In this document: positions 20,871 through 36,047 of the stretch, piece after piece
How positions within the stretch are numbered: position 1 is the stretch's first letter
How the letters are laid out: every line of letters begins with the position of its first letter
From: Calditrichales bacterium
GTDB lineage: Bacteria > Calditrichota > Calditrichia > Calditrichales > J004
Direction: 5' to 3'
DNA length: 64,000 bases
Assembly (NCBI GenBank): GCA_965267575.1
Contig: OZ254086.1
Coordinates: 224,001-288,000 of the forward strand
Position numbers and translations under genes: made by a program
The notes under the pieces: generated by a model
What the model was told of the DNA's origin: nothing
Seen by the model: only the letters and a program-made list of their open reading frames with translations
The model's database searches: none

Positions 20871-21221
20871 ATGGCTAAAAAAGAAGTACCTGTCCTGCCG
20901 GAAATTGAAACCGAAGAGCAGGAAGAGACAAGCACGGGACACGTTCCGCAATACAACGTGGTCCTTCATGACGATGACGATCACACCTACGATTATGTCA
21001 TCGAAATGCTGCGCGGTTTGTTTGGGCATGATTTTGATACGGCCTTCCAAATGGCTGTGGAGGTGGACACCATGGGCCGCGTGATTGTTTTTACCACCCA
21101 CAAAGAGCAGGCCGAGTTTAAGCGCGACCAGATAAAAAGCTACGGCCCCGATCCGCGGCTGGATCGCTCCAAAACCTCCATGCGCGCCACCATCGAACCG
21201 GTTTCCGGGGATAAGAAATAA
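20871..21221 (+). CDS. clpS: Clp protease adaptor ClpS
   Basis: YNVVLHDDDDHTYDYVIEML and C-terminal ATIEP. Confidence 0.88.
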   Translation: MAKKEVPVLPEIETEEQEETSTGHVPQYNVVLHDDDDHTYDYVIEMLRGLFGHDFDTAFQMAVEVDTMGRVIVFTTHKEQAEFKRDQIKSYGPDPRLDRSKTSMRATIEPVSGDKK

Positions 21222-21243
21222 AACATCAATACAAGGACGTATC

Positions 21244-21861
21244 ATGAACCAGAAAACCCCGCTCATTCTCCTGGCCATTTACATCATCCTTTTTACCGTG
21301 CTGGCCATTGACCCCTATGACCGTCCCGTGTGGTGGGCCGAGAACCTGCCGATCATGATGATTGTGGTCACTTTGATTATCCTGCAGCGTTGGTTTGTTT
21401 TTTCCCCGCTGGCTTATGGCCTGATGTTTGTGCTGATCGTCCTGCACACCATCGGCGGGCATTATACTTTCAGCCGCGTACCGTTTGGCTTTGTAACCGA
21501 CCTGTTTGGCTTTGAGCGCAACCATTACGACCGCATGGCCCACTTCACCGTTGGTTTTTACGCCTACCCGATTGCCGAGATGGTGCTGCGCAAACGGGCG
21601 GTTAACTCCAAATGGCTGCTTTTTCTTTTTCCCCTATTCAGTATTATTTCCGTCGCCGCGGTCTATGAATTGTTCGAATGGCAATTCGCCATCCTGGCCG
21701 ACCCGCAGGCCGGGGCCGAGGTCCTTGGCTCACAGGGTGATGTCTGGGATGCCCAAAAAGATATTCTTGCCGACACGCTGGGCGCCTTGGCCGTTATGGC
21801 GCTCTTTTTCTGGCGAAATGCAGGGGAGATTAAAGAGGGGATAAGGAAGCAAAAGGTCTAA
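21244..21861 (+). CDS. DUF2238 / YjdF family membrane protein
   Basis: HTIGGHYTF..VP.G, RNHYDRMAHF, LGSQGDVWDAQKD. Confidence 0.88.
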   Translation: MNQKTPLILLAIYIILFTVLAIDPYDRPVWWAENLPIMMIVVTLIILQRWFVFSPLAYGLMFVLIVLHTIGGHYTFSRVPFGFVTDLFGFERNHYDRMAHFTVGFYAYPIAEMVLRKRAVNSKWLLFLFPLFSIISVAAVYELFEWQFAILADPQAGAEVLGSQGDVWDAQKDILADTLGALAVMALFFWRNAGEIKEGIRKQKV

Positions 21862-21928
21862 AACATTACGGGTTAAAGACTGTAATAACATTTGAAAACA
21901 CATATACCACTGTAGCCCCCATCTGACG

Positions 21929-22072
21929 CTAGTCCAGCCCGGAGTAGTCGATGCGCTCCCCGGCGTAGACGTACTGATCTATAGGGCTGATGATAGAAAC
22001 GGGATTCTTAAAGCCGCCAAACGCCGTTGAACAAAAAATTAAAAGCAGAGAACATACGATTGCGGTTTTCAT
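21929..22072 (-). pseudogene. Truncated 5' fragment of the PKD-Rhs toxin gene
   Basis: Encodes MKTAIVCSLLLIFCSTAFGGFKNPVSIISPIDQYVYAGERIDYSGLD then TAG; homology to the other copies stops at about 21932. Confidence 0.85.
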
Positions 22073-22097
22073 TGTTCTTCCACGTCAGTATTTTCTT

Positions 22098-23027
22098 TTA
22101 AGGCAATATTTTAAAAATAACTGTCTTTTTATTATTTGAACCCATTAAATAAATCTGTTCATTTTGATATTTTATATCATAGTTAAAGCCACCAAACACA
22201 ACCATAAAGTCTTTTCCATATTTGCCCCCAAAGATATTTTCCAAATATGGAACCATATTAATAGAGTTAAAAACTCCATTATCCAGATCAAATTCTCTTA
22301 AGATCAAAGGTCCGTCCAGGGGCACAGCTATGCCACAATCGTTTTCAAAATGCAATATACCAGAAAAATTCTCTAAACCATTGACTACTGTTTTTTTACG
22401 GAGTTCTCCATTTAAATCAATAAAATAAATAAGGCTATCAGAAGGTAGAATAAAATAACCGTTATTATATGCAATCGTCGGCTCAAAAATTAGTGGCTTA
22501 TTAAAGTTCTTTATGTCGATTTTTTTTTCTATCCTCAGATGACCATTGCTTAGACTAAAAGATCTTAAAACCAAGTTGTAACGTTTCTCAAAAAAAGCAA
22601 AAAGTAGGCTATCAACCACGTGATAATCGATAATATTTCCTGATCCGATAGAAAAATTACTTAAAAGAACACCGTTAGTGTTAAATTCGCTTATTTCATT
22701 TTTTGGGACAGTGAAAAGGAATATTGATTTTCTATTCTGATCATATTTTATCTTGCGGATATCCTCAGGTACCTTGAACGTTCTATACAAAGAGTCATTT
22801 TTAAACACGATGATTTTGTTTTTATAATTATCAGGCAAATAGATGAATCCTTTTTCATCAATAGCAAAAGAATAAGGCACGGATTCACTACCTGAGCTTA
22901 TATAGACTTCACTCTTGTTACTATCTTCAAAAGGCACCTCTGAGAAGACGGAAATCTTCTCATTTTGTGAGAAGCATTTCGTGAAAATTATCATAAGAAA
23001 AAAGAACACGCGTAATTTATTTATCAC
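22098..23027 (-). CDS. Exported beta-propeller-like protein, candidate immunity protein
   Basis: Signal peptide; PYSFAIDEKGFIYLPD NHL-like blade; AT-rich; directly downstream of an Rhs tip. Confidence 0.65.
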   Translation of the reverse strand: MINKLRVFFFLMIIFTKCFSQNEKISVFSEVPFEDSNKSEVYISSGSESVPYSFAIDEKGFIYLPDNYKNKIIVFKNDSLYRTFKVPEDIRKIKYDQNRKSIFLFTVPKNEISEFNTNGVLLSNFSIGSGNIIDYHVVDSLLFAFFEKRYNLVLRSFSLSNGHLRIEKKIDIKNFNKPLIFEPTIAYNNGYFILPSDSLIYFIDLNGELRKKTVVNGLENFSGILHFENDCGIAVPLDGPLILREFDLDNGVFNSINMVPYLENIFGGKYGKDFMVVFGGFNYDIKYQNEQIYLMGSNNKKTVIFKILP

Positions 23028-23046
23028 AGTATATCCTTTCCACTGA

Positions 23047-23785
23047 CTACTTACTTAGGATTGGTTTAATGTTGGACGGTTTTTTAGGAAAGGCAATTAT
23101 ACTATAGCCTGCATCTACAACATCACGTCTATTAACTCTTCCAATGCCTGCCATATTGTTATTTAAATATTTACCTTCATTTGTTGAGAATTGCGATTTC
23201 TTTACTCTTTTTGCGGAAGAACTGGCACTTGATAGTGTAATCTGACCATTATTTGGATTGTCTATGGCAACCATTACGTGTGTTATATTGCCAGCGCCAT
23301 TACCAATAAAGACGTAATCTCCTCCTTTTATTTGAGACGCATCATTTGTTTCTATATAGCTTCCAGCTTCGCCCGAATTAATTTCCTCAACTGACATACC
23401 AGATGGATCTACAAAAATTAAAGGATTATTAAATACATAATGATAGGGGGTTTGAGATAGATATTTCCTGCTAAGCGGATCAACAGATAAAAACCTTCCA
23501 ATCACGGGGTCATAATACCGTGCCCCAAAATAATAAAGCCCCAGCCCATTCTCATCATCCAGTTCCTTGCCGGAGAATTTGTAGATATCATTACCGGCGC
23601 CGGATGTGTGGCTGCGTCCGGGCATCCGTAAGCCAAAGGGATAGTAATCATCCTTGCTGACGATTTCGCCCTGTTCGTCCACCGTAACCACGCCAAAGGC
23701 GGGCAGGCGCGGATGTTGCCCAGATGGTCCTTCACATAATTGGTATTCCGGTTTACGCTTGATGGCGATCTGGAAGCTGTAGTAA
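23047..23785 (-). pseudogene. Orphan Rhs core plus tip (partial NlpC/P60-like), 5' deleted and frameshifted
   Basis: Matches the repeat from YYSFQIAIKRKPEY; indel near 23740 and 20 bp insertion at 23688-23707; core ends NNPLIFVDPSG; tip has GDYVFI...ITHVMVA...SASSS. Confidence 0.8.
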
Positions 23786-23873
23786 TTTCTATCGTTTACT
23801 TTTTTGCCGCTTTTTACCGCCTCCTCGTGCTAAGAAGCAGAAAAAAATATAATTTCACCAAGATGTTCTGAAA

Positions 23874-24275
23874 TTAATCGTAGCCCCCAAGTGAATCTGA
23901 TAATATAAATAAAAATTCGTTTCTTGGATTGACCGATAAATCAATATAAATATCTTCGCTGAACATAAAACCGTGACTAACCTCTTTATCTCGCCAAACG
24001 GATTTAACTCTGACTAAGTTATATTTTCCCTTCTCTAAATTAATTTCAAAAACATTTATGTCCTCATGATTAATGCGTGTTAATCCTTCAGAGAAAATTA
24101 ATTTCTCGAATCCGTTATTGTTAACGACAAATATGTTTATTACTTCATCAGGCAAAAATCCATCTGACAGAATCAAATTCAAAGTGATACTGTCTGGTTT
24201 AGAATTAATATCTTGTGCTAAAGAAACAAGAGCTAATAGCACAACAAATAGAACTGACGATATGGTATTATTCAT
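23874..24275 (-). CDS. Exported protein, candidate immunity for the metallopeptidase tip
   Basis: ATG overlaps the TGA of the upstream toxin frame; signal peptide; AT-rich. Confidence 0.65.
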   Translation of the reverse strand: MNNTISSVLFVVLLALVSLAQDINSKPDSITLNLILSDGFLPDEVINIFVVNNNGFEKLIFSEGLTRINHEDINVFEINLEKGKYNLVRVKSVWRDKEVSHGFMFSEDIYIDLSVNPRNEFLFILSDSLGGYD

Positions 24276-25498
24276 TTTTTCTTTGCTCCATACCAAAAAT
24301 TAACTAATTCGTGTAAGCTTTTAATTTGCTTTAAAGTCGTTTTAGTGCCTATTGAGTACTTGGATTGTTGCATAATATTACCAATATCCTTTCGAATTAA
24401 TTCGCCTATGCTATTTCGAGGATGTTCAAGCCCTGCACCGTGTCCAAATTCGTGGGCCCCTGTTCTGGCTAATTGGTTATTCTCGCCAGAACTTGCAAGC
24501 TGCGCAGATACTTTTTGTACAGAACCTAAACGATGGGAAGAACCTAACTTTCCAGGCGCGGTATCGACAAGCTTAATTATGTTATCTCCTTCTCTTGGTT
24601 TCCCACTAGCTATATCAACATTTGCCTGCCATTTAGTTTTTCCATCTTTTGAATGTCCATTAAAAGAAGATTCAATCTGATCTTTAATGGTAGCTGCAAT
24701 ATTATCTAATTGCTCTTAAGTAAAGCTTTCTGAACTTTCATTAACTATTGTAGCAGTATACGTAATAGTATAAGTTACATTGCCATCCTTATCTTCTTCC
24801 TTAGTAGAGGATATATCTTTTCCGTCTGGATCAATATATATAATAGGATTATTGGCCACATAGACATAAGGACTTAGGTTACGATATGAATCGTAGTGCG
24901 GATCAACAGAAATAAACCTTCCTATCTCCGCATCATAGTACCGTGCCCCAAAATAATAAAGTCCCAGCCCATTCTCATCATCAAGCTCTTTACCGGAGAA
25001 TTTGTAGATATCATTCCCGGCACCGGATGTGTGGCTGCGGCCGGGCATCCGTAAGCCAAAGGGATAGTAATCATCCTTGCTTACGATTTCGCCCTGTTCG
25101 TCCACCGTAACCCGGATATTGCCCAGGTGGTCCTTCACATAAAAATGGTATTCCGGTTTGCGCTTGATGGCAATCTGGTAGCTGTAATAGTCTATCGCGC
25201 CTTCGTTGTCTTTTACTTTTAGCTTGATGCTGATGACGCGGTGGGTTTCCGTTTTGTCCAGCATGTAGGTTTGGGAAAAGCCGGAGCCCGTACCCGCCTG
25301 TTGGTCATCTATGTACCAGGTGTATTGGGTAATACTGCCGCCATCAGGATCGTAGCTGTCCAGCCCGGAGTAGTCGATGCGCTCCCCGGCGTAAACGTAC
25401 TGATCTATCGGACTGATGATGGAAACGGGATTCTTAAAGCCGCCAATTGCCGTTGAGCAAAAAATTAAAAGCAGAGAACATACGATTGCGGTTTTCAA
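24272..25498 (-). pseudogene. PKD-Rhs core toxin with metzincin-type peptidase tip, interrupted by one in-frame TAA (24716-24718)
   Basis: Manual translation past the TAA continues in frame: EQLDNIAATIK...AHEFGHGAGLEHP...GNIMQQ...GAKKK*. Confidence 0.85.
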
Positions 25499-25520
25499 TA
25501 CTCTTCCCTTAGACTTCCAA

Positions 25521-25985
25521 TTATTCCCATCCCATTATTTCATAAAATTGTTTTTTAAATGATGATATTTGCGAATTTGAATACAATTTTTTGATGACTT
25601 CTAAAGCTTCCTTAAATCCCCAATAATCTGCAATCTCTTCGTCTTTGCTTTTTCTTCTATTTTTTTTCCCATTTAAAAAATGTTTATGATGATAAAGTTC
25701 ATGCAAAAGAATACGGGATAATTCAAAAACAATGGTGATTTCTTTTTCAAGCATCGAAGATGGATATATATCTAATGTGTCAAACATTATTTCTATTTCA
25801 AATACGCCACCGTCTTTCTTAATCCACCTTCCTGCACTATTTTTTGAAGAATAATCTTTATCTAATAATATAATTTTGTTTATTCCATGAAAATTTTCTT
25901 TTCCATAAGTATCAATTATCTTTTGTAATAATTCTGCTCCATTCCAACTTGTATATTTTTCTTTTCTTAAGTCAACTATATTCAT
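25521..25985 (-). CDS. HExxH-motif protein, candidate immunity protein
   Basis: ILLHELYHH and downstream DEEIADYWG; no signal peptide; follows an Rhs tip remnant. Confidence 0.65.
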   Translation of the reverse strand: MNIVDLRKEKYTSWNGAELLQKIIDTYGKENFHGINKIILLDKDYSSKNSAGRWIKKDGGVFEIEIMFDTLDIYPSSMLEKEITIVFELSRILLHELYHHKHFLNGKKNRRKSKDEEIADYWGFKEALEVIKKLYSNSQISSFKKQFYEIMGWE

Positions 25986-25993
25986 AACAATAA

Positions 25994-26670
25994 CTAATTA
26001 CCTCCACTATTTGGGTCTTCTAAATTCCCAACTGCATCCATCAAATCTTTCAACCTTTGATTTTTAGGACTTAGCTTTTTTGCTTCTTCTTGGAGTTTAA
26101 ATTTCTCAGCTTCTTTTTGTTCAGCAGTTCTTGTGTCTGCACCCTCTTTTTTTCTGGATGCTTCAGCTTTGCTTTTTGCCTTTTTTCCCTGGTTCGCTTG
26201 GTCAGCAGTTTTAGTCTTCGAATTATTACTCGATCTTTCAGTAGGCTGCTCTATTGGATTCGAATCAATTCCCTCGCATTTAAAGGCGTATTAAGCGTAT
26301 AATTATAAGGAGACCACGCCGGATACTTATTTGCCAACGGATCAACCGCTACCCACCTTCCAATCACGGGGTCATAATACCGTGCCCCAAAATAATAAAG
26401 TCCCAGCCCATTCTCGTCATCCAATTCCTTCCCCGAATACTTATAAATATCATTATCCGTGCCGGCATTAAAGGAGCGGCCCGCCATCTGCAGCCCAAAG
26501 GGGTAATAGTCATCATGGCTGACCACGTCGCCGTTTTCATCCACGGTGACGCGGATATTGCCAAGGTGGTCCCACAGGTAGTAGTTGGCCGTGTATTCGA
26601 TCTTGTATTTAACTTCCAGGTAGGGCCGGTTGCTGCTCGCTTCCGAGCTGCGGAAACGGACGTGGCAGAT
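25994..26670 (-). pseudogene. 3' part of a second-type Rhs gene (DNRLRE-like domain end, Rhs core, frameshifted tip)
   Basis: HVRFRSSEASSNRPYLEVKYKIEYTANYYLWDHLGNIRVTVDENG...GARYYDPVIGRW; final DPxG missing; Lys/Glu-rich tip continues in another frame to TAG at 25994. Confidence 0.75.
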
Positions 26671-26786
26671 GTCAAAGAACTAAAAACCCAATCGCGCCCC
26701 AAGCGCGACGACGCATTATAGAGCCCCTATCCCCGGCCATAATCTTGCACGGAAGCCTGAAAGAAGCAAGACCCAATGCGTCAGGT

Positions 26787-26947
26787 CTTTTTGGTTCTTT
26801 TTGGACAGGCAAAAAGAACAATGTGCCTTGACTTAAAATCCCAGGCCAAAAGAAAAATTCTAAATGAGTCTGTCTGACCATTCTCAAGACAATTAGTCAG
26901 GCGGGAATATGAATGTTCTTTTTGTTTAGCCAAAAAGAACCAAAAAG
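26787..26947. repeat. Inverted repeat pair (MITE/REP-like), 34 bp arms
   Basis: 26787-26820 matches the reverse complement of 26914-26947 at 30 of 34 positions; each arm is itself a hairpin. Confidence 0.8.
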
Positions 26948-27047
26948 CATATGCGCTTTCAGAGCGTATTTTGGGCCTGGCGGAGTTGTGTTCGCTGCCT
27001 TCCCCGCTCTACAAATGCGCAGTTCACGCCTCAGGGCGTGATTAGGT

Positions 27048-27233
27048 TTAAAGATTCCCTTTTACATTCTTATAGTTGATGACCGCCGCGGAGATACGCG
27101 CCGTGTAGCTGCTGTCTTCTTCATTGAAGTAGATGTTGGCGTAGTTGCTGCGCTTTACCGGTTCTTCCTGGCCAAACAGTGGTAGGGAGAGAATGAAGGT
27201 GGAAAGGAGAAGGGTGGTGAATTTTGTTTGCAT
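27048..27233 (-). pseudogene. 5' fragment of an exported protein, probably the start of the disrupted gene at 25994-26670
   Basis: Signal peptide then KRSNYANIYFNEEDSSYTARISAAVINYKN, resembling N-termini of WapA-like/DNRLRE proteins; ends abruptly at the repeat region. Confidence 0.55.
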
Positions 27234-27338
27234 GTGCTTTATGCTTAGGCTATAAAAACCATATAAAAAATATGCTTAAGATTACAGCTGAGATTTTCTT
27301 AACTACAGTCTTATTACTAACTGTTGATACCAAACCAA

Positions 27339-27740
27339 TTAATCGAAGACATACAGATCTATGTCTATTGACGAATCTAATTCATAAATATTTTTAATTG
27401 TTGCTTTTTTCAAATTAATAGCCGGCGTTTCATTACCATGCAAATTAACAACACATGATATTTCAGATTCGATCTGATATTTTTCGCAAATTTCCACAAT
27501 CTTTTTTTTAGCAGGCAAAATGATATTAATTAGTTTTTCTATTTCATAATTTAGATCTATCGATTCTGTCTCTTTTGAAGAGAGACACCACCCGTCTTGT
27601 TTTCTTTTTAGGGAAGAGTTCTGAATTTTCTCTCCCATTCTCCAAGTTTTTGTAGGAATTATTCCAATAAACTTAGTTATTTTATCAGGCTTTACACCAA
27701 TACCTGTCAATATAAATGAAACCTTTATTGTAGTTTGCAT
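27339..27740 (-). CDS. DUF4279-like immunity protein
   Basis: PDKITKFIGIIPTKTWRMGE...WCLSS...IDIDLY pattern; downstream of the Ntox33-like tip. Confidence 0.78.
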   Translation of the reverse strand: MQTTIKVSFILTGIGVKPDKITKFIGIIPTKTWRMGEKIQNSSLKRKQDGWCLSSKETESIDLNYEIEKLINIILPAKKKIVEICEKYQIESEISCVVNLHGNETPAINLKKATIKNIYELDSSIDIDLYVFD

Positions 27741-27751
27741 CTTCGTTCCTA

Positions 27752-28873
27752 TTAAAAATTATTAATGTTTAGTCCAGTGGGTTCCCCCGGTCCAGTGGCA
27801 CTTTTTGGTTTTATTTTGATATTTCCTTTCGGGTCTTTGTACAAATCATATTTACTGGCACTTTTTCCGCCTTTAAGATCATGCACATCGACACCCCCAT
27901 CTTTGAGTTTCTTTATCTCCCCTTTTGATAGTTTCTTGTCTTGTGCAGAATCACTGTCTTCCTCTTCTTTATCATTTTCGTTTTCATTATTTGAATCCGA
28001 GTCTTTAACTTTCTTATATAAATGGTACCCCAAAATTCCGCCAAGTATTAGATCGCCTAGCGGAAGTGGCCCATCAATAGCTGCTGCACTTATGCCTACT
28101 GCGACAGCAGCGGCTTCCGCTGCTTCTTCTGGTTCATCCCCTTTATTTTCATCTTCATCTGAGTTTTTATCTTGTGTATCCGTGCTATCCATTCCTGTTG
28201 GGTCAATAAACCTAAGTGGGTTATTACCAACATAATTATAAGGAGTCAAGCTTAAGTAAGAGTCTGAATGCGGATCTGAGGTTGTAAACCGCCCCAAAGC
28301 CGGATCATAATATCTTCCAGGATTAAACCAATACAACCCCAGCCCATTCTCATCATCCAGTTCCTTGCCGGAAAATTTGTAGATATCATTCCCGGCACCG
28401 GATGTGTGGCTGCGGCCGGGCATCCGTAAGCCAAAGGGATAGTAATCATCCTTACTGACGATTTCGCCCTGTTCGTCCACCGTAACCCGGATATTGCCCA
28501 GGTGGTCTTTCACATAAAAATGGTATTCCGGCTTACGCTTGATGGCGATCTGGTAGCTGTAATAATCTATCGCGCCTTCGTTGTCTTTTACTTTTAGCTT
28601 GATGCTGATGACGCGGTGGGTTTCCGTTTTGTCCAGGATGTAAGTTTGGGAAAAGCCGGAGCCCGTGCCCGCCTGCTGGTCATCTATGTACCAGGTGTAT
28701 TGCGTAATACTGCCGCCATCAGGATCGTAGCTGTCCAGCCCGGAGTAGTCGATGCGCTCTCCGGCGTAAACATACTGATCTATTGGGCTGATGATGGAGA
28801 CGGGATTCTTAAAGCCGCCAATTGCCGTTGTACAAAAAATTAAAAGCAGGGAACATACGATTGTGGTTTTCAT
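27752..28873 (-). CDS. PKD-Rhs core toxin with Ntox33-like (predicted RNase) tip
   Basis: Signal, PKD, core ending NNPLRFIDPTG, hydrophobic DGPLPLGD segment, then DVHDLK and DLYKD motifs. Confidence 0.85.
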   Translation of the reverse strand: MKTTIVCSLLLIFCTTAIGGFKNPVSIISPIDQYVYAGERIDYSGLDSYDPDGGSITQYTWYIDDQQAGTGSGFSQTYILDKTETHRVISIKLKVKDNEGAIDYYSYQIAIKRKPEYHFYVKDHLGNIRVTVDEQGEIVSKDDYYPFGLRMPGRSHTSGAGNDIYKFSGKELDDENGLGLYWFNPGRYYDPALGRFTTSDPHSDSYLSLTPYNYVGNNPLRFIDPTGMDSTDTQDKNSDEDENKGDEPEEAAEAAAVAVGISAAAIDGPLPLGDLILGGILGYHLYKKVKDSDSNNENENDKEEEDSDSAQDKKLSKGEIKKLKDGGVDVHDLKGGKSASKYDLYKDPKGNIKIKPKSATGPGEPTGLNINNF

Positions 28874-28883
28874 AGGCACATTT

Positions 28884-29810
28884 CTAAAGCGGCAAATTAT
28901 TCACAACAAAAAACATACCGTTACATCCCCAGATAATTAACTCACCGGATTTGGCCAAAAAGGCAGAATAACAACTATTTAAGGTTGCTAGTTCAGGTAA
29001 ATGTTTATTTAAATTTATTTTATAACTTCCGTCTTTATGTACAATAAAATCGCTAAATTCTTCATCTTCGGTTATTATAAATATGGAGTCATTTAAGCTC
29101 ACAAAAGCGCCATCAAGTGCCAGAAAATCAAAAATCGTATATGTTGTATCCTGATTAATATTAAATTCTAAAACTTTACCCACATAATCGTAAGCACCGC
29201 GGCTGGCGTTATACGTGTCAAATAGATATACTATACTATCTCTGGCGTTTTTAAACTGTCCTATTAAACTTCCTTCGGCATTTAGAGAATCATCACTGGC
29301 AACATAGGTATTGTATTTCTCGGTAGTATAAAATAATCTTTTATTTGCTGTATAATAGATATCTCGAACATCCTTGGCTAAAAAACGAAAAACTTCTTCA
29401 TGATCATCAAATGTGATAGCAATTATGCTGTCACGAGTATTTAAAAATATTTTATTGTCCTCAATGCTAACATATTGAATATTCCATCCTTTAGGGAATA
29501 GGGCTATTTTCTGCAAGGATCTTAGTTTAAAATTAAAATGAAACAATTCGTTTGTTTTATCCCCAAACAACCCAGCTAAATATAATGAGGAGGTATCGAT
29601 TCCCACGATTGATAGTATTTTTATATTAAAATCACCATACAAATATGAAATGGATGAATCTAAAAGAGATTCTTTTTTATATAGTGTATCCGGGACAACT
29701 GTAATTGTTGAATCTAATTTGTAATTGGGATTATCTTTAGCGCTTGGTTTCGCGTTTTTGTTTCCGCAGCTTAAGATAATTAAAATAAAAATTAATATTG
29801 TCGATTTCAC
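28884..29810 (-). CDS. Lipoprotein, candidate immunity protein
   Basis: Lipobox ILSC; beta-rich; AT-rich; downstream of the amidase-like tip. Confidence 0.7.
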   Translation of the reverse strand: MKSTILIFILIILSCGNKNAKPSAKDNPNYKLDSTITVVPDTLYKKESLLDSSISYLYGDFNIKILSIVGIDTSSLYLAGLFGDKTNELFHFNFKLRSLQKIALFPKGWNIQYVSIEDNKIFLNTRDSIIAITFDDHEEVFRFLAKDVRDIYYTANKRLFYTTEKYNTYVASDDSLNAEGSLIGQFKNARDSIVYLFDTYNASRGAYDYVGKVLEFNINQDTTYTIFDFLALDGAFVSLNDSIFIITEDEEFSDFIVHKDGSYKINLNKHLPELATLNSCYSAFLAKSGELIIWGCNGMFFVVNNLPL

Positions 29811-29842
29811 AAGAAGCTCCCATCATAAAGTCTATACTCTTT

Positions 29843-31150
29843 TTAATTGGAATCAAGCCGAAATGCACGCCCACTATTTAAGCCTCTTAGCCACGATTCA
29901 TAAATTGCCCGGCCAATTGGACTATCTGTATTTCTTTTTCTGCTGTCATACGACCTTTTATCTTTGGCCAAAATAAAAGCCTTGGGTTGATTATCACGAT
30001 CAAAGGCCCAATTTGCTCCTATCTTACCATTGTTTTTTCCAATATTATACACAATTGGAACCATTTTGCCCCACTCTGTACTTGGTATCATATCTTCAGG
30101 AGCTACAATAGCCACATGTCCCGAACCATTTTCGTTAAAAGATGCCAATATTGTTGTTATCCCTTCCTTCGCGTAATTAGCCGCCTGTTCATAGCTAATT
30201 TCTATTGCATTTGGCTCGTCTAGCGGAACAGACATTAAAAAACTATACATGTCATTTGCGCGCATACCATCTAGTGAATGGTCTTGTCCTTCATTTAAGA
30301 TATCCCTTACTCCAAAATTACAAAACGTAGTAAGATTTATATTTATCATTTCGAAGCCATCGTCAAGCGTAGTAACAGAACCGCTAAACCAATACCTGGG
30401 CTGAAGATTGCTGTCATTTACTATCTTCATTCCTGCCTCATTCAGTTTTGCGGCTGTGCCAAAATCAGCTTTCCCATCGGGATCAACTCTATTTATAGCA
30501 TTGTTATGAGTGTATTGAAAAGGACTGTCACTTAAAAATTTATCCGCCAACGGATCAACCGCTACCCATCTGCCAATCATGGGGTCATAATACCGTGCCC
30601 CAAAATAATAAAGTCCCAGCCCATTCTCATCATCCAGTTCCTTGCCGGAGAATTTGTAGATATTATTGCCGGCACCGGATGTGTGGCTGCGGCCGGGCAT
30701 CCGTAAGCCAAAGGGATAGTAATCATCCTTGCTTACGATTTCGCCCTGTTCGTCCACCGTAACCCGGATATTGCCCAGGTGGTCCTTCACATAAAAATGG
30801 TATTCCGGTTTACGCTTGATGGCGATCTGGTAGCTGTAATAGTCTATGGCGCCTTCGTTGTCTTTTACTTTTAGCTTGATGCTGATGACACGGTGGGTTT
30901 CCGTTTTGTCCAGCATGTAGGTTTGGGAAAAGCCGGAGCCCGTGCCGACCTGCTGGTCATCTATGTACCAGGTGTATTGGGTAATACTGCCGCCATCCGG
31001 ATCGTAGCTGTCCAGCCCTGAGTAGTCGATGCGCTCCCCGGCGTAAACGTACTGATCTATCGGGCTGATGATGGAGACGGGATTCTTAAAACCGCCAAAC
31101 GCCGTTGAGCAAAAAATTAAAAGCAGAGAACATACGATTGCGGTTTTCAT
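29843..31150 (-). CDS. PKD-Rhs core toxin with CHAP/papain-like Cys-His amidase tip
   Basis: Strong RBS GGAGG; core ends NNAINRVDPDG (residue 226); tip has TTFCN...ANDM...GHVAIVAP. Confidence 0.85.
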   Translation of the reverse strand: MKTAIVCSLLLIFCSTAFGGFKNPVSIISPIDQYVYAGERIDYSGLDSYDPDGGSITQYTWYIDDQQVGTGSGFSQTYMLDKTETHRVISIKLKVKDNEGAIDYYSYQIAIKRKPEYHFYVKDHLGNIRVTVDEQGEIVSKDDYYPFGLRMPGRSHTSGAGNNIYKFSGKELDDENGLGLYYFGARYYDPMIGRWVAVDPLADKFLSDSPFQYTHNNAINRVDPDGKADFGTAAKLNEAGMKIVNDSNLQPRYWFSGSVTTLDDGFEMININLTTFCNFGVRDILNEGQDHSLDGMRANDMYSFLMSVPLDEPNAIEISYEQAANYAKEGITTILASFNENGSGHVAIVAPEDMIPSTEWGKMVPIVYNIGKNNGKIGANWAFDRDNQPKAFILAKDKRSYDSRKRNTDSPIGRAIYESWLRGLNSGRAFRLDSN

Positions 31151-31287
31151 TGTTCTTCCTCCGCGGCTTCGCGTTTCTCCAGCCAGGCCAGTTCGTCTTC
31201 GCAGATAGCGGCTTCTTCACTCTCCGGCCAGCCGCTCTTTATTTCCGTAAATAGCGTACGTGCTTCTTCCCACTGTCCGTCGCATTG
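31147..31287 (-). pseudogene. 3' remnant of a TPR-like gene coupled to the toxin start
   Basis: GQWEEARTLFTEIKSGWPESEEAAICEDELAWLEKREAAEEEQ* with ATGA overlap; host-like GC content. Confidence 0.6.
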
Positions 31288-31346
31288 TCGCTACTACTTT
31301 TGGGACATGACCCTTAATAAAATACGACAAACTACAAAACTTGTAG

Positions 31347-32042
31347 TTACTCTAAGAGCCTAAATAGTAATTGTTCTTCTATATCAAATTGGTTGTTCTC
31401 ATATTTGTACAATAAAACATAATAGCTTATAACATTGCCCTTTTGTGTTTTAAAAAATTGTTCATAGTAATAGTTGCCATCTTCCATAACAATTTGATTA
31501 TTTGGCTCTATCTTATATTCATTAATGAGATAATTAAACTCGTCTTTATTTTCGGCGGCAAAAATAGTAGCTTCACTGCCTATAAAAATCTCACTCATTA
31601 TATTTATTATTTTATTAAAACTTGCCTTAGTAACATCTTCTAAAAAAAACCTATTTACGAAATCAATAATATTATTTTTATTTAGGTCATAGGTCTCATA
31701 ATCATATTCCCGAATGTGTATGGCAAAAATAACCTCGCTATCTATAAATATACTCTGAATGTCGTGTTCAGCTTTATAAAATCTAACATCATCAACTTTT
31801 TCGAGTAAAGTTAAAAGTATAGCGGTATCTGAAAGGCTTGTAACCTTATTAATTAGTGTAAACATCTCATTAACGTCTTTTTTGTTAACCTGTTCGTGAT
31901 GTTTCACGATTGAACGAACAAAATAAAACCTAGAAAAATCTTTAACTTCTTCTACGCTTAGTACGGTTTGTCCCTTACAAAAAAGCACTGTACTGAATAC
32001 GAAAAGAATTTGTATTAAGTAAGACATGCCCATTTTACTCAT
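31347..32042 (-). CDS. Exported protein, candidate immunity protein
   Basis: Overlaps the upstream toxin stop; hydrophobic N-terminus; AT-rich. Confidence 0.65.
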   Translation of the reverse strand: MSKMGMSYLIQILFVFSTVLFCKGQTVLSVEEVKDFSRFYFVRSIVKHHEQVNKKDVNEMFTLINKVTSLSDTAILLTLLEKVDDVRFYKAEHDIQSIFIDSEVIFAIHIREYDYETYDLNKNNIIDFVNRFFLEDVTKASFNKIINIMSEIFIGSEATIFAAENKDEFNYLINEYKIEPNNQIVMEDGNYYYEQFFKTQKGNVISYYVLLYKYENNQFDIEEQLLFRLLE

Positions 32043-33240
32043 TCTTTTTTTCCTCGGTTGGCGTGAATATTAATTCATCTAGTTCCTCATTAGACAAATC
32101 CTGATAATTATTATCTTCTTCTGTTTCTTCGTAATATTCACTTGTTGCTTGTGATTCGTTTGCCTTAGCTTCTTCTGTACAAACCCCACTCGATGACTTT
32201 ATTAAATGCGAATTATCAGGATTATTAACATTATAAAAGTTTGCTTGGTCTTCTGCAGAATTTAAATTTCCTTGCTCTATAGCATGCGTTGCTTCATTTG
32301 TAAGCGTACCTACTGCTTGTGAACCTGCAGGATAAAGCTTAGATGAATTATCTAAACTTATAGTGGTAATTGTTGTTACTTTCTTTTCGCTAAATTTGGA
32401 ATAATTAGATATTGTATTTGCGCGTGCATTCATCTTGCTTTTCGTTCTAAATAGCCACCGCTGATTTTTATTTTTAAGTACCTTATTGTGAAGAGCACGA
32501 TATTTTGCCGACGTTCTATATGCTTTTCTTACTGCCCATAGAACTTTATTATTTTTAGGTTTAATTACATCTTTTCCATTAGGATCGATAAATTTTAGTG
32601 GATTATTTGCAACATAACTGTATGTTGATAGCCTAGGATAAGAACCAGCATGGGGATCAACTGAGCCAAACCGACACACCGCCGCATCATAGTACCGTGC
32701 CCCAAAATAATAAAGTCCCAGCCCATTCTCATCATCAAGCTCTTTACCGGAGAATTTGTAGATATCATTGCCGGCACCGGATGTGTGGCTGCGGCCGGGC
32801 ATCCGTAAGCCAAAGGGATAGTAATCATCCTTACTGACGATTTCGCCCTGTTCGTCCACCGTAACCCGGATATTGCCCAGGTGGTCTTTCACAGAAAAAT
32901 GGTATTCCGGCTTACGCTTGATGGCGATCTGGTAGCTGTAATAATCTATCGCGCCTTCGTTGTCTTTTACTTTTAGCTTGATGGTGATGACGCAGTGGGT
33001 TTCCGTTTTGTCAAGCATGTAAGTTTGGGAAAAGCCGGAGCCCGTGCCGACCTGCTGGTCATCTATGTACCAGGTGTATTGGGTAATACTGCCGCCATCG
33101 GGATCGTAGCTGTCCAGCCCGGAGTAGTCGATGCGCTCCCCGGCGTAAACATACTGATCTATCGGGCTGATGATGGAAACGGGAGAGGCAGCAAGACTAA
33201 AGGCAAGAGTTGTTAAGACCAGTAAAATAGCTTTTTTCAT
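32035..33240 (-). CDS. PKD-Rhs core toxin with alternative signal peptide and zincin-like tip
   Basis: MKKAILLVLTTLAFSLAAS joined to the shared PVSIISP block; core ends NNPLKFIDPNG; tip has LTNEATHAIEQ...EEAKA. Confidence 0.82.
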   Translation of the reverse strand: MKKAILLVLTTLAFSLAASPVSIISPIDQYVYAGERIDYSGLDSYDPDGGSITQYTWYIDDQQVGTGSGFSQTYMLDKTETHCVITIKLKVKDNEGAIDYYSYQIAIKRKPEYHFSVKDHLGNIRVTVDEQGEIVSKDDYYPFGLRMPGRSHTSGAGNDIYKFSGKELDDENGLGLYYFGARYYDAAVCRFGSVDPHAGSYPRLSTYSYVANNPLKFIDPNGKDVIKPKNNKVLWAVRKAYRTSAKYRALHNKVLKNKNQRWLFRTKSKMNARANTISNYSKFSEKKVTTITTISLDNSSKLYPAGSQAVGTLTNEATHAIEQGNLNSAEDQANFYNVNNPDNSHLIKSSSGVCTEEAKANESQATSEYYEETEEDNNYQDLSNEELDELIFTPTEEKKNE

Positions 33241-33261
33241 TTTTAATCATCCGCAAAGGGA

Positions 33262-34428
33262 TTATTTCTTAGATTTTTCCAAAAGCTTGTTAAATAAGGG
33301 CAGCTGTTTAAAGGCTTCAGTCTTTATTTTTAAAGCCATATTATAGTCTTGAGCATCTTGGCTAAAATGCCTTGATGTTTCATATATTTTTAGGTTTTTG
33401 GATAAGAGCGTATATGCAGATTGATATTCTCTTTTGGCTAGCAATATCCTTGCTTTAACACGTACCGGAAAGATTAAATTCACCTCGCCCCAATCATATT
33501 TTTCTATGAGGTCAGAGCAGATACTTTCGGCGATATCATTATTTCGTAGTCCAGCATTGGCCTGTGCTACCCAGGTTTTAAGGTAAATATATCTCTGGTC
33601 ATAATCAGGATCGTCTTTATTTAATTCATTAAGCGCATACTCGAAGTGTTTGATACCTTCTTTTTCTTTTCGCCAGAGACAATATAATATTCCATAATCT
33701 TCGTGTATTTCATGTAGGGTAATAGCCTCAGGTGCGTATTTAAACAAAGCTTTTATATAAGATTCTGCTGTTTCAAAAGCCTTTTTTTTGGTAAAAACAT
33801 GACGCAGGATTCGTAAATTAGAAACTATGTTTATTTTATCCTTTAAGTATTTATTGGCTTTCAGCCCGTATTTTATAGCTTTATCATATTCTTCAAGCTC
33901 AAAAGCATATAAACTGGCGAGATAATAATTAGCTAATCCTGTGCCGGTCGAAAGGCCGTCTGCCTTTTTGTAGTATTCTTTGGCTTTCTCGTAGCCCCCC
34001 GTTTCTTCATAATTAGAACCGATATTTATATAACATCGTTCCTGATATTCAACACCTTCAGGGTCGGAAATACTCTCATAAATATTTAAACACTTGAAAT
34101 AGAAATCGTTTGATTTACTAAAATCTTTTAAGTCACTATACAAGCCGCCGAGACAATAATATATCTCTCCTAGTATTTCATCATCATTACCAGATATATT
34201 TTCTAATGCCGCCAAAAAATATTTTTCGCTTTTGCTGTCCTCATCTAATTGATGGTGCAAAATTTTGCCGACTTCAAAATCAAAAAGATACCCAAAGGGC
34301 GCATAGTCACCCTTAATTCGTAATAGACCTTCGCAGGCTTTTAACAACGCGTTTTGCTGTTCAGGAACATCTTTAATATAGTTTTCAATAACCTCTTTTG
34401 TCTTCTTTTTTGTTATTTTTTTATTCAT
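33262..34428 (-). CDS. Tetratricopeptide repeat protein
   Basis: Repeated TPR-like units (YYCLGGLY, YINIGSNY...YEKAKEYY); AT-rich; no signal peptide. Confidence 0.8.
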   Translation of the reverse strand: MNKKITKKKTKEVIENYIKDVPEQQNALLKACEGLLRIKGDYAPFGYLFDFEVGKILHHQLDEDSKSEKYFLAALENISGNDDEILGEIYYCLGGLYSDLKDFSKSNDFYFKCLNIYESISDPEGVEYQERCYINIGSNYEETGGYEKAKEYYKKADGLSTGTGLANYYLASLYAFELEEYDKAIKYGLKANKYLKDKINIVSNLRILRHVFTKKKAFETAESYIKALFKYAPEAITLHEIHEDYGILYCLWRKEKEGIKHFEYALNELNKDDPDYDQRYIYLKTWVAQANAGLRNNDIAESICSDLIEKYDWGEVNLIFPVRVKARILLAKREYQSAYTLLSKNLKIYETSRHFSQDAQDYNMALKIKTEAFKQLPLFNKLLEKSKK

Positions 34429-34476
34429 CTTCTTTGATCTCAGTCTCGTCTTTTTCTTCCTTCCTTTTTCTCTTTT

Positions 34477-34866
34477 TCAATATACCCTCAACCCCAAATA
34501 CTCTTCCATGGGATTAAAATCCTTGTCGGAGTGCAAAAGAGAAAAACCCTTTTCGATACAAAAAGTCCCGATAATAACATCAATCGTCTTTCTGATGGTG
34601 ACACCCTTTTTGCGCAAATAGCGGAAGTTTGTCGCGCTTTTTATGGCAAGCTCTTTTCCAAGCATATCGTAGCACTCCAGATGTTCAAATAAGGATTTGG
34701 CTTTTTCGAAATCCTTGTCCTTGTTAAAGCCCTGCAACACTTCCGTCAAAATAATATCGCCGGTTACGATATACTCCTGCCCGAGAATTGCCTCAAGCCG
34801 TGCCACCTGCGTTGTCTCCACGCCGTTGAAAAAATCAATCCAAACCGATGAATCCACCAGGATCAT
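34477..34866 (-). CDS. vapC: VapC PIN-domain toxin
   Basis: ILVDSSVWIDF, EVLQG, RKTIDVII, LLHSDKDF. Confidence 0.93.
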   Translation of the reverse strand: MILVDSSVWIDFFNGVETTQVARLEAILGQEYIVTGDIILTEVLQGFNKDKDFEKAKSLFEHLECYDMLGKELAIKSATNFRYLRKKGVTIRKTIDVIIGTFCIEKGFSLLHSDKDFNPMEEYLGLRVY

Positions 34867-35060
34867 GAATCTGTCCTGAGCTCATCCAGATCGCCGGTCC
34901 ATTTCAGTTTGCCTTTGTATTTGCGCAAGGATTCCTGTTTTTTCAGACGCACCAGAAGTTTCAGCGCTTCTTCAACGGCCTCCTTTTTAGTCTTATAGCC
35001 GCCAAGCTTTAAAGCCTGTTCGATAAGCTGGTCGTTTAATACAATATTTGTTCGCATCAC
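34863..35060 (-). CDS. vapB: VapB antitoxin
   Basis: MRTNIVLNDQLIEQA...TKKEAVEEAL...WTGDLDELR; overlaps vapC. Confidence 0.92.
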   Translation of the reverse strand: MMRTNIVLNDQLIEQALKLGGYKTKKEAVEEALKLLVRLKKQESLRKYKGKLKWTGDLDELRTDS

Positions 35061-35185
35061 AAACCCCTATGTGTATGAATTTTGAATATATACACATGCA
35101 CGGGTAAACGCCAATTTTAGTGCGTGAGCACTATGGGTTAAAGATTATGGTAAGCATAAATAATGAGGATATTTAAAAGCGGTAA

Positions 35186-35231
35186 TTATTTAGGAAAGTT
35201 TCGCAAAACTCTTATCAATTCTGATATTCAT
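35186..35231 (-). pseudogene. Deletion scar of a RelE-like toxin gene
   Basis: ATGA-coupled MNIRIDKSFA joined directly to ...NFPK* in another frame. Confidence 0.4.
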
Positions 35232-35428
35232 TTGCGCAGTTTGTTGAGAAATGAATCCGTGTCCACTCTTTGACCGGTGCGGCCTTTTTTTATGGCATTT
35301 GCCAAACCGATATCCTCCATTTCTTTGTCCGAAATAAGCCTAGCTTTAATGCCCATTTGAGCTATTTCTATCAAAAGCTTCAAATCTTCATCTGAATCGC
35401 TTTTCAGTATTGCTGTTTGCATATTCAT
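35228..35428 (-). CDS. Small antitoxin-like protein
   Basis: About 66 aa; EMEDIGLANAIKKGRTGQRVDTDSFLNKL is typical of antitoxins preceding RelE/ParE toxins. Confidence 0.55.
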   Translation of the reverse strand: MNMQTAILKSDSDEDLKLLIEIAQMGIKARLISDKEMEDIGLANAIKKGRTGQRVDTDSFLNKLRK

Positions 35429-35516
35429 ACTCTCGTGATTTTGATGTTTAAAATTTATTCTAAAAACGGGTGATGTCAAATAATGGTTTCAATCTTACAA
35501 CACAGTCTGTAAACTA

Positions 35517-36047
35517 TCACATTTCTCCAAAGGCCTTTTCAAAAACACCGTAATCTTTCTTTGAATAAAGCACAAAATGGATTTCCAGCCCGGCGTTGCT
35601 TTCATTTAAAAAATCAGCCGCGGTAGAAAGCATCAGCGGGGCGGCGCGCTCTATGGGGTAGCCAAAAATGCCCGTGCTGATGGCCGGAAAGGCGATGCTG
35701 TGCAAATCGTTTTCGACCAATACCTCCAGGCTACGGCGCGTGGCCGACGCCAGCTTGTTGTCCTCATCGCCCTCACCCATACGCGGTCCCACAGCGTGGA
35801 TCACGTGGCGCGCCTTCAGCTTGCCGCCACCGGTAATCACCGCGTCACCGGTTTTAACGGGCTTCAGCTTATTGCTCTCTTCCTGGATGCTTTGGCCGCC
35901 CTTGGAGACGATCGCTCCGGCCACACCGCCACCGTGAGCCAGCTGGTTATTGGCCGCGTTGACGATGGCGTCGCAATCCATTTCCGTCAAATCACCCTGC
36001 TCGATAATGATTTTTCCTTTATTGACAGCGCCTTCTTTCATTATCAC
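35517..36047 (-). CDS. Macro domain ADP-ribose-processing protein
   Basis: GDLT, AIVNAAN, GGGVAGAI, VIHAVGP, AFPAISTGIFGYP. Confidence 0.93.
   Translation of the reverse strand: MIMKEGAVNKGKIIIEQGDLTEMDCDAIVNAANNQLAHGGGVAGAIVSKGGQSIQEESNKLKPVKTGDAVITGGGKLKARHVIHAVGPRMGEGDEDNKLASATRRSLEVLVENDLHSIAFPAISTGIFGYPIERAAPLMLSTAADFLNESNAGLEIHFVLYSKKDYGVFEKAFGEM

Follow-up and report, generated by a model that had tools for sequence, protein, structure and literature searches.

Organization of the relic

In a 64,000-nt window of contig OZ254086.1 from a Calditrichales bacterium, the minus strand at 25994–27233 carries pieces of a gene in which the end of a DNRLRE-type domain lies directly ahead of a Rhs-associated core, the end-piece that in Rhs and Tc toxins closes a YD-repeat shell. 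"Window" denotes this whole stretch, and coordinates are positions within it unless prefixed by G000, the organism's own genome. The segment is very probably the decayed remnant of a polymorphic-toxin gene of a shell-less DNRLRE-core family, the intact members of which have no YD shell. Its parts, and the homology by which each was recognized, are as follows.

27051–27233, minus strand: 5′ remnant with start codon, signal-peptide-like N terminus and the first ∼40 mature residues, family residues ∼5–65 (BLASTP to relatives P0001 and P0002)
26683–27095, minus strand: dispersed non-coding repeat in place of family residues ∼66–476 (alignment to genomic copies)
26663–26682, minus strand: stop codon (26682–26680) and ∼20 nt of filler common only to loc2a, a copy at a second locus; right-hand breakpoint
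26605–26661, minus strand: last ∼19 residues of the DNRLRE/CBM96 domain, VRFRSSEASSNRPYLEVKY (homology to loc2b, the other copy at the second locus, 96% identity)
26254–26604, minus strand: linker KIEYTAN and Rhs-associated core (TIGR03696, NF041261), stop at 26253–26251
25997–26272, minus strand: Lys/Glu-rich tail of 92 codons in another frame, remains of the C-terminal (toxin) extension, stop at 25996–25994

The domain junction is contained in an open frame of 142 codons (26679–26254, minus strand) that reads FFDICHV-RFRSSEASSNRPYLEVKY, KIEYTAN, YYLWDHLGNIRVTV and the remaining Rhs-type core, ending after ...YNYTLNTPL. Within it, FRSSEASSNRPYLEVKY (26655–26605, minus strand) is the true end of a DNRLRE/CBM96 domain and is followed by the seven residues KIEYTAN and then by YYLWDHLGNIRVTV (26583–26542, minus strand), the start of the Rhs-associated core. 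The translated frame matched TIGR03696 Rhs_assc_core over residues 58–135 (E 1.3e-16, 60.8 bits, cut-off 32.5) and also NF041261 RHS_core at positions 1147–1252 of 1261, that is, the final ∼110 positions. No direct DNRLRE score was obtained for the window remnant because ∼20 residues are too few to score alone: NCBIfam returned two Rhs-core models and no DNRLRE match for the window fragments, a Pfam scan of the three fragments, too short or too diverged, returned no family, and neither collection returned a RHS_repeat or YD family. The assignment comes instead from loc2b (G000 1860800–1861327), which is 96% identical to the window stretch over the shared part (query 68–148) and keeps ∼90 extra upstream residues. 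Loc2b matched NF033679 DNRLRE_dom at profile positions 102–163 of 164 (E 1.3e-12, 48.1 bits, cut-off 34), ending exactly at ...EVKY, and Pfam CBM96 (PF24517) at E 6e-7; because so close a copy scores as DNRLRE up to ...EVKY, the identity of the window remnant as a DNRLRE end is correct.

The 5′ remnant is a 61-codon open reading frame (ORF; 27233–27051, minus strand) with an N-terminal hydrophobic stretch and a stop at 27050–27048. It aligned by BLASTP to the N termini of P0002 (residues 11–65, E 7e-10) and P0001 (residues 31–68, E 1e-8) and is the sole copy in the genome, while the core fragment shares 65% identity with P0002 over residues 477–604. By these alignments the window holds family residues ∼5–65 and ∼477–604 on the same strand and in order, the missing interior being family residues ∼66–476 (∼1.2 kb). 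The original prediction had placed the end of a DNRLRE-like domain a few residues before a Rhs core, which the coordinates, the linker and the profile scores of loc2b and of the 142-codon frame bear out. It had also seen a signal-peptide fragment resembling WapA N termini at 27048–27233; the signal-like N terminus stands, through its match to P0001 and P0002, and the label "WapA-like" is only loosely right.

The window gene is a dead pseudogene relic, with its interior replaced, a stop codon immediately upstream of the DNRLRE remnant, a changed core residue and a frameshifted cleavage motif. The window core keeps the first Asp motif (VDPL), but relative to the 27-sequence family alignment a Trp stands in place of the invariant Lys before DHLG. 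The frame breaks at ∼26275, just ahead of the expected PxxxxDPxG, with loss of the invariant P....D..G block, and this second Asp-Pro motif is restored in neither frame of the window copy. The 92-residue tail had no family match, and BLAST found no further copy of it in the genome, the loci or the collected proteins. Read-derived contigs of this organism, built from public data (four runs of a single sample, probably the one behind the assembly and hence not independent of it), agreed with the window with zero differences and no indel over 25900–26384, 26515–26720, 26695–26793, 26812–26956 and 26927–27400, except that one of the four runs, X6, showed two differences in the piece 26812–26956. 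Since these contigs span them without a difference, the frameshift and both junctions are present in the reads. As a dead relic, the window copy by itself could not show a design, for which intact relatives are needed.

Intact relatives and the architecture of the family

The DNRLRE-core junction was present in several of the 41 related genomes searched. The nearest open homolog, a 475-residue frame in genome G020, is 59% identical to loc2b; at its locus (L005:898–2670) an in-frame TAG lies between a 114-residue upstream part and the 475-residue DNRLRE-core-M23-like part, and could reflect a pseudogene, a sequencing error or read-through. When residues 1–300 of the G020 frame (DNRLRE and core) were searched against a large protein collection, 1101 proteins matched at E ≤ 1e-3, and among the best 120 of these 1101, 20 proteins exceeded 700 residues, with a query coverage of 87–97%. 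Seven relatives of 772–821 residues were scanned for domains. All seven contained a complete DNRLRE domain (from profile position 1 or 2 to 164; from 10 in P0018) that ended at residue 482–498, and in all seven a TIGR03696 core was present, beginning ∼33 residues on; RHS_core alignments, reported for four of the seven, began at residue 474–492. Neither RHS_repeat (PF05593) nor YD_repeat (TIGR01643) was found in any of the seven at E ≤ 0.1, and LysM was likewise absent from all seven. Counted from the DNRLRE end motif, KDHLG followed after 9–12 residues in 62 of the 63 listed matches carrying the motif.

A second search with the same query against proteins of 833–2375 residues gave 816 matches. 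Among the best 120 of these 816, only P0121 (835 residues) and P0122 (839 residues) covered more than 90% of the query with a DNRLRE-core junction, and both have the architecture of the ∼800-residue relatives; the other listed long matches shared the core only and carried RHS_repeat and/or DUF6443, as ordinary shell-bearing Rhs proteins do. Intact relatives thus comprise ∼770–840 residues, consisting of a Sec-type signal peptide, a ∼290-residue galactose-mutarotase-like domain, the DNRLRE domain, a core of ∼110 residues and a hypervariable toxin extension of ∼160–230 residues, with a putative immunity gene next in line. The named sources and loci are mostly Calditrichota, together with Marinimicrobia and one Cytophagia metagenome-assembled genome.

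A shell-bearing relative was recovered only at a distance. A search with the N-terminal domain, covering proteins of 1352–3860 residues, returned P0241 (2148 residues) as the sole long relative; its N-domain is 25% identical over 98% of P0002 residues 25–320, its DNRLRE domain lies at 300–460 and its core at 1881–1989, and YD repeats and DUF6531 lie between the two. With no YD repeat in any of the seven scanned relatives and a shell only in this distant cousin, the shell-less DNRLRE-core arrangement is a real, conserved design. Other layouts were also seen: P0124 (1034 residues), P0125 (1376 residues) and P0130 (1398 residues) carry 220–620 other residues between DNRLRE and core, which in P0125 and P0130 form a ∼600-residue stretch with PF06439, and none of the three had a YD match at E ≤ 0.01.

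The same core start also follows PKD/Ig-like heads in the short matches P0084, P0086, P0091, P0096 and P0102, which include genes of the window's own array (P0102 is from another contig), while in P0080, P0103 and P0105 (337–358 residues) a signal peptide leads directly into Rhs core and toxin. Because one core start stands behind DNRLRE, behind PKD/Ig-like domains or behind a signal peptide alone, the head is interchangeable. The earlier proposals that the N-terminal domain is swappable and that shell-less Rhs is a genuine design are therefore upheld, the latter by the seven relatives free of YD repeats and by the near-constant junction; close intact relatives have no shell, and the two window fragments come from one family, strand and order rather than from different kinds of gene, although two source copies may be involved.

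A quick tree of 145 core segments (listed proteins of both searches and own-genome copies with a DHLG match and at least 100 residues, four duplicates dropped) left 77 of 142 inner branches unsupported. DNRLRE-adjacent cores cluster in it (20 changes versus a shuffled mean of 47.6) but do not form one clade, and because the tree is uninformative in this respect no origin or direction, whether the shell was lost or gained, is drawn from it. At locus L018 a full gene and a small ORF are followed by an orphan with core that starts at DNRLRE profile position 106. As a separate observation on the core, Caldithrix-type genomes show an ILEI (PF15711) domain inserted inside it, between ...KELDEE and WYYFGARYYDP; examples are L007:1543–3012 (genome G011), P0040, P0053, P0062, P0066, P0070 and P0084, and G011 has 17 matches in two regions.

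Conservation across the family was assessed from 22 full-length members (at least 700 residues), within a family alignment of 27 sequences. Mean pairwise identity among the 22 was similar in the N-domain (35%) and DNRLRE (34%), far higher in the core (61%) and lowest in the C-terminal extension (12%), and the family alignment collapses directly after PxxxxDPxG. Invariant in all 27 rows (P0002 numbering) are K506, DHLG, D573, D583, P602, D607 and G610. An N-terminal hydrophobic stretch, followed by a common conserved motif, is present in 19 of the 22. Open frames, a signal-like start, a fixed junction and an invariant core, kept despite heads only ∼35% identical, argue for long purifying selection on the whole protein. 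The extensions include HNH-like, STM2901-like and M23-like examples, and the fall from 61% identity in the core to 12% in the extension is what polymorphic toxins typically show.

An AlphaFold model of P0002, built on the 27-sequence alignment, was confident for residues ∼30–500. Its DNRLRE region matched the CBM96 structures 8wab_B (Z 18.3, root-mean-square deviation 3.1 over 166 residues) and 7vbo_A (Z 16.1), which are chondroitin-sulfate- and alginate-binding CBM96 modules, and its residues ∼55–315 matched galactose-mutarotase-like beta-sandwiches of glycosidases (Z 10–11.7 over ∼200–215 residues). For the core, P0063, an orphan of the same genome, was modeled from a 100-sequence alignment with a predicted local distance difference test (pLDDT) score of ∼70–93, and the modeled core matched, at probability 1.00, the C-terminal plug in 43 solved chains of Tc, Rhs or teneurin proteins. 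The P0063 core also aligns by sequence with TccC3 through ...LLDPDGL/M, with 23 residues between the two TccC3 motif aspartates. The family's Asp pair probably corresponds to TccC3 D651 and D674; a PDB title names a TcC D651A mutant. Passages of PMC8765631 describe the conserved C-terminal region of Rhs and TcC proteins as an aspartyl autoprotease that closes off the cocoon, its cleavage site lying after PxxxxDPxGL. A passage of PMC8636562 gives the spacing between two DPLGL motifs as 17 residues, assigns the catalytic Asp to the second of them and reports that D1338N abolishes cleavage. Family D583 and D607 sit in the corresponding Asp-Pro motifs.

From these features, the intact protein would be exported by Sec, its two sugar-binding-like domains would bind an acidic surface polysaccharide, and the core would cleave itself after PxxxxDPxG and so free the toxin. 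Toxins may be swapped when the gene recombines with orphan cassettes further downstream, the start of which lies within DNRLRE. In the window gene, residues ∼66–476 have given way to the ∼420-nt repeat, and only the small downstream ORF is intact.

Repeat, second locus and neighborhood

The repeat that interrupts the window gene is ∼420 nt long; ∼375 nt are its own, and the other ∼45 nt also code for the last part of the 5′ remnant. It holds internal 34-nt inverted repeats, hairpins and a terminator-like end. Counting that of the window, the genome has three full copies, along with about five partial ones, three of which lie in the second toxin locus and one in a third Rhs-core array.

G000 4065307–4065679: full copy, 90% identity, in another delimitation 4065307–4065730
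G000 1997050–1997439: full copy, 76% identity
G000 1857515–1857579, 1858952–1859021 and 1863278–1863387: partial copies, second toxin locus
G000 1649667–1649714: partial copy, third Rhs-core array
G000 1857631–1857718 and 4066046–4066161: further partial copies

Some copies sit where DNRLRE-type toxin genes are broken off, others between genes. At E ≤ 1, Rfam gave no match on the repeat, the sole match over 21000–37000 being a sub-threshold CRISPR-DR30 at 24077–24112 (E 0.7). The entire repeat was not found in 40 related genomes, of which eight had only a 34–42-nt palindromic sub-motif. Its left edge consists of ∼45 nt encoding ...ISAAVINYK..., family residues ∼47–61, and only in the window does the 5′ coding sequence run unbroken across the repeat's left boundary; for this reason the other copies resemble duplicates of the broken junction in the window. 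The right edge ends in ...gattgggttttt and is followed by 20 nt common only to loc2a and then by RFRSSEAS.

The second locus (G000 1858952–1863387; L001) holds two more copies of the DNRLRE-core type. Loc2a (G000 1859015–1860052) has the same breakpoint as the window copy, with 90% DNA identity that starts at 26741, inside the repeat; homology between the window and loc2b starts at 26663. Family fragments of the genome, corresponding to residues 218–437, 406–559 and 476–613, lie in this locus at 1859–1863 kb. The locus consists of rearranged pieces of a DNRLRE-type gene beside repeat fragments: one orphan has a HEAIGH toxin, the other an internal core deletion, and the piece of family residues 218–437 lies downstream of both; ∼16 residues of that piece around ...NWSGTLAEG have a counterpart of ∼80% identity in the second orphan.

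The relic lies inside a low-GC (guanine-cytosine) array on the minus strand at ∼22000–34500, with 32–46% GC compared with ∼50% in the flanks. Its other features are these.

21929–22072, minus strand: 47-residue PKD-head stub
23047–23691, minus strand: core-only orphan with a weak NlpC/P60 match
24716–25498, 27752–28879, 29843–31150 and 32035–33240, minus strand: four PKD-headed core-toxin genes (signal peptide, PKD-like, Rhs core, differing toxins)
25521–25985, minus strand: intact 154-residue ORF directly downstream of the relic, putative immunity gene
33262–34428, minus strand: TPR protein, upstream end of the array
34477–34866, minus strand: PIN-domain protein, upstream end of the array
35517–36047, minus strand: Macro-domain protein, upstream end of the array

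Each of the four PKD-headed genes is followed by small ORFs; the toxin of 27752–28879 is Ntox33 and the next ORF is DUF4279. The 154-residue ORF is probably the immunity gene of the lost toxin, as judged from its sequence family and position. It contains a HELYHH motif and matched Peptidase_M91 (PF14891) at E 1e-3 (19.9 bits, below the cut-off of 25), and no Pfam or NCBIfam model scored above cut-off. At E ≤ 1e-3 it has 34 relatives of 48–291 residues, nearly all matching from their own N terminus and none of the 34 as the C-terminal domain of a long protein. BLAST against the collected proteins, loci and genome returned nothing beyond the ORF itself, and an ESM Atlas search returned only unnamed clusters. 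Because the family is stand-alone, an immunity gene fits this ORF better than a toxin domain does, despite HELYHH and M91.

Genome-wide, nine TIGR03696 matches were found, only one of which, outside the window, lies in a long frame. The only shell-type protein detected is a TcB/TcC-like fusion of at least 2507 residues (G000 ∼95000–102523; L080:3–7523, minus strand), with SpvB, the TcdB middle N and C domains, FG-GAP, RHS repeat and a core of its own.

Alternatives and relation to known systems

Several observations weigh against reading 25994–27233 as the remnant of a shell-less gene whose core works on its own. No intact family copy is present in the own genome, only fragments, and a search of five related genomes with whole P0018 matched nothing to residues 1–232, so that only orphan-like pieces are seen in this lineage; for full-length forms the sources are metagenome proteins from other lineages. 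In the full-length P0002 model the core has a pLDDT of 40–63, and the C-terminal extension is low too, so that the packing of the core against DNRLRE is unreadable; the better core model, that of P0063, may simply reproduce solved shells. Self-cleavage of the core outside a shell, and even its stable folding there, are predictions, and the proposed mechanism would still need a route across the outer membrane. The immunity label of the 154-residue ORF comes from position and family shape only. At the locus itself, each repeat junction also occurs elsewhere in the genome without the other fragment, so that the relic may be a chimera of two copies, and the listed read-derived pieces leave an 18-nt gap within the repeat (26794–26811), so that the physical link of the two fragments rests on the assembly.

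The alternative that survives best, unlikely but worth serious thought, is that the segment is chimeric debris, its two fragments deriving from different family copies joined by recombination between repeat copies. It would explain why the right junction, made up of repeat end, 20-nt filler and RFRSSEAS, is found again at G000 1858952–1859054 without the 5′ fragment and why the left junction, ...ISAAVINYK... joined to the repeat, is also seen in the copies at 4065 kb and 1997 kb, where no core follows, and it accords with the rearranged family pieces that adjoin repeat fragments at the second locus. However, the window fragments lie on the same strand and in the right order, bracketing one complete repeat copy, and the 5′ coding sequence is continuous over the repeat's left boundary here alone. 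In-situ deletion is therefore favored over a chimera of two copies as the origin of the relic, and since both pieces come from the same family, the conclusion on architecture would be unchanged under either.

It is improbable that the ∼800-residue shell-less proteins are non-functional deletion derivatives or orphans of shell-bearing WapA-like proteins, kept as recombination stock. A shell-bearing cousin does exist in P0241, the own genome and five relatives hold truncated pieces only, and passages of PMC12704120 describe a Streptococcus suis WapA with DNRLRE ahead of a shell and report truncated Rhs orphans without a signal peptide as non-functional. Against this, the 22 members diverge to ∼35% identity in the head, yet all are open frames and 19 start in a signal-like manner; all keep the 9–12-residue junction, the invariant core residues and both Asp motifs; and conservation falls to 12% exactly after the cleavage motif, as it does in active polymorphic toxins.

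We consider it very improbable that the core works in trans, plugging a separately encoded open YD shell such as the TcB/TcC-like fusion. The genome does encode one such long Rhs-type protein, passages of PMC8765631 describe a Tc cocoon built from two chains, and the isolated core was modeled in the plug conformation; but the fusion carries its own core, no gene linkage was seen between it and the relic family, and a Sec signal and sugar-binding heads suggest an independent surface or secreted protein. An assembly or sequencing artifact, with a false join at the repeat and a base-calling error as the frameshift, is scarcely credible, even with three full repeat copies in the genome and 26794–26811 uncovered by the listed pieces, given that read-derived contigs, though not independent of the assembly, span both junctions and the frameshift site and show copy-specific repeat sequence, 10% off the nearest copy, on both sides of the gap.

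The window locus is accordingly a pseudogene relic within an array of PKD-headed toxins and should be annotated so. Beyond this, and held with considerable reserve, the ∼110-residue core may be an autonomous, portable self-cleaving module that works without a YD cocoon behind interchangeable Sec-exported heads in bacteria of the FCB group (Calditrichota and neighbors). If true, cage-free Rhs toxins would be a class of their own, with target finding left to the head instead of to a shell or an injection machine. Either the core acts on its own as a self-cleaving linker, in which case a small soluble protein would allow the minimal autoprotease to be tested directly, or its role is a different one, for example docking in trans or providing a handle for recombination. 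The family would add a Sec-dependent, lectin-headed branch of polymorphic toxins in phyla whose interbacterial weapons are little studied. To our knowledge, structural and mechanistic studies of Rhs, Tc and teneurin proteins have without exception viewed the C-terminal region as the inner plug of a toxin-enclosing YD cocoon. In the present family this region is strongly constrained, at 61% identity compared with ∼35% for the rest, and has both catalytic-type Asp motifs. Polymorphic toxins with a Rhs core are already known; what appears to be new, as judged from sequence, is a Rhs core placed directly behind a glycan-binding module with no cocoon. No description of a Rhs core used without YD repeats was found in a full-text literature search, subscription journals and supplements being outside its scope. 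A "no YD" passage in PMC4612132 concerns genomes without YD genes, not shell-less cores, and the passages of Zhang et al. 2012 (PMC3482391) on "RHS repeat" describe no such architecture, although its supplements might list some.

One close likeness is to the Rhs/TcC plug (TccC3, YenC2, Pseudomonas protegens RhsA, Photorhabdus laumondii Rhs1). Shared features are the matches to TIGR03696 and to NF041261 positions 1147–1260, the modeled fold, a variable toxin immediately afterward and, without variation among intact members, PxxxxDPxG and the two Asp-Pro motifs. The difference lies upstream: in passages of PMC8765631 and PMC8636562 the solved cases end a ∼100-kDa YD-repeat cocoon and seal it from inside, whereas the family core stands 9–12 residues behind CBM96 with no detectable YD repeat.

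The family is also reminiscent of WapA. As laid out in a passage of PMC12704120, S. suis WapA-CT1 consists of a signal peptide, an N-domain of unknown type, DNRLRE, LysM, DUF6531, two Rhs fragments and a toxin; across WapA-CT1 and P0241 the elements in common with the family include a Sec signal, an N-terminal domain, DNRLRE, a Rhs core, a C-terminal toxin and downstream truncated orphans, and P0241 has both its N-domain and DNRLRE in common with the family. In contrast, what separates DNRLRE from core in WapA and P0241 is LysM and/or DUF6531 together with a full YD shell that exceeds 1000 residues, none of which is found in the family, and WapA is a Gram-positive cell wall protein, while the sources of the family are mostly Calditrichota.

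The window piece shares with Rhs orphan cassettes the missing start, a 3′ conserved region with C-terminal extension, a small downstream ORF and a place within an array of toxin/immunity pairs. It differs from them in that its 5′ stub is a DNRLRE end and not YD repeats, in that the cleavage motif is frameshifted and in that the genome holds no full-length DNRLRE-type gene to recombine with. Finally, the head of the intact family resembles CBM96 (Z 16–18, together with PF24517 and NF033679). Known CBM96 modules sit in polysaccharide lyases, whereas here the module is fused to a toxin-delivery end-piece, with ligand binding as a prediction.

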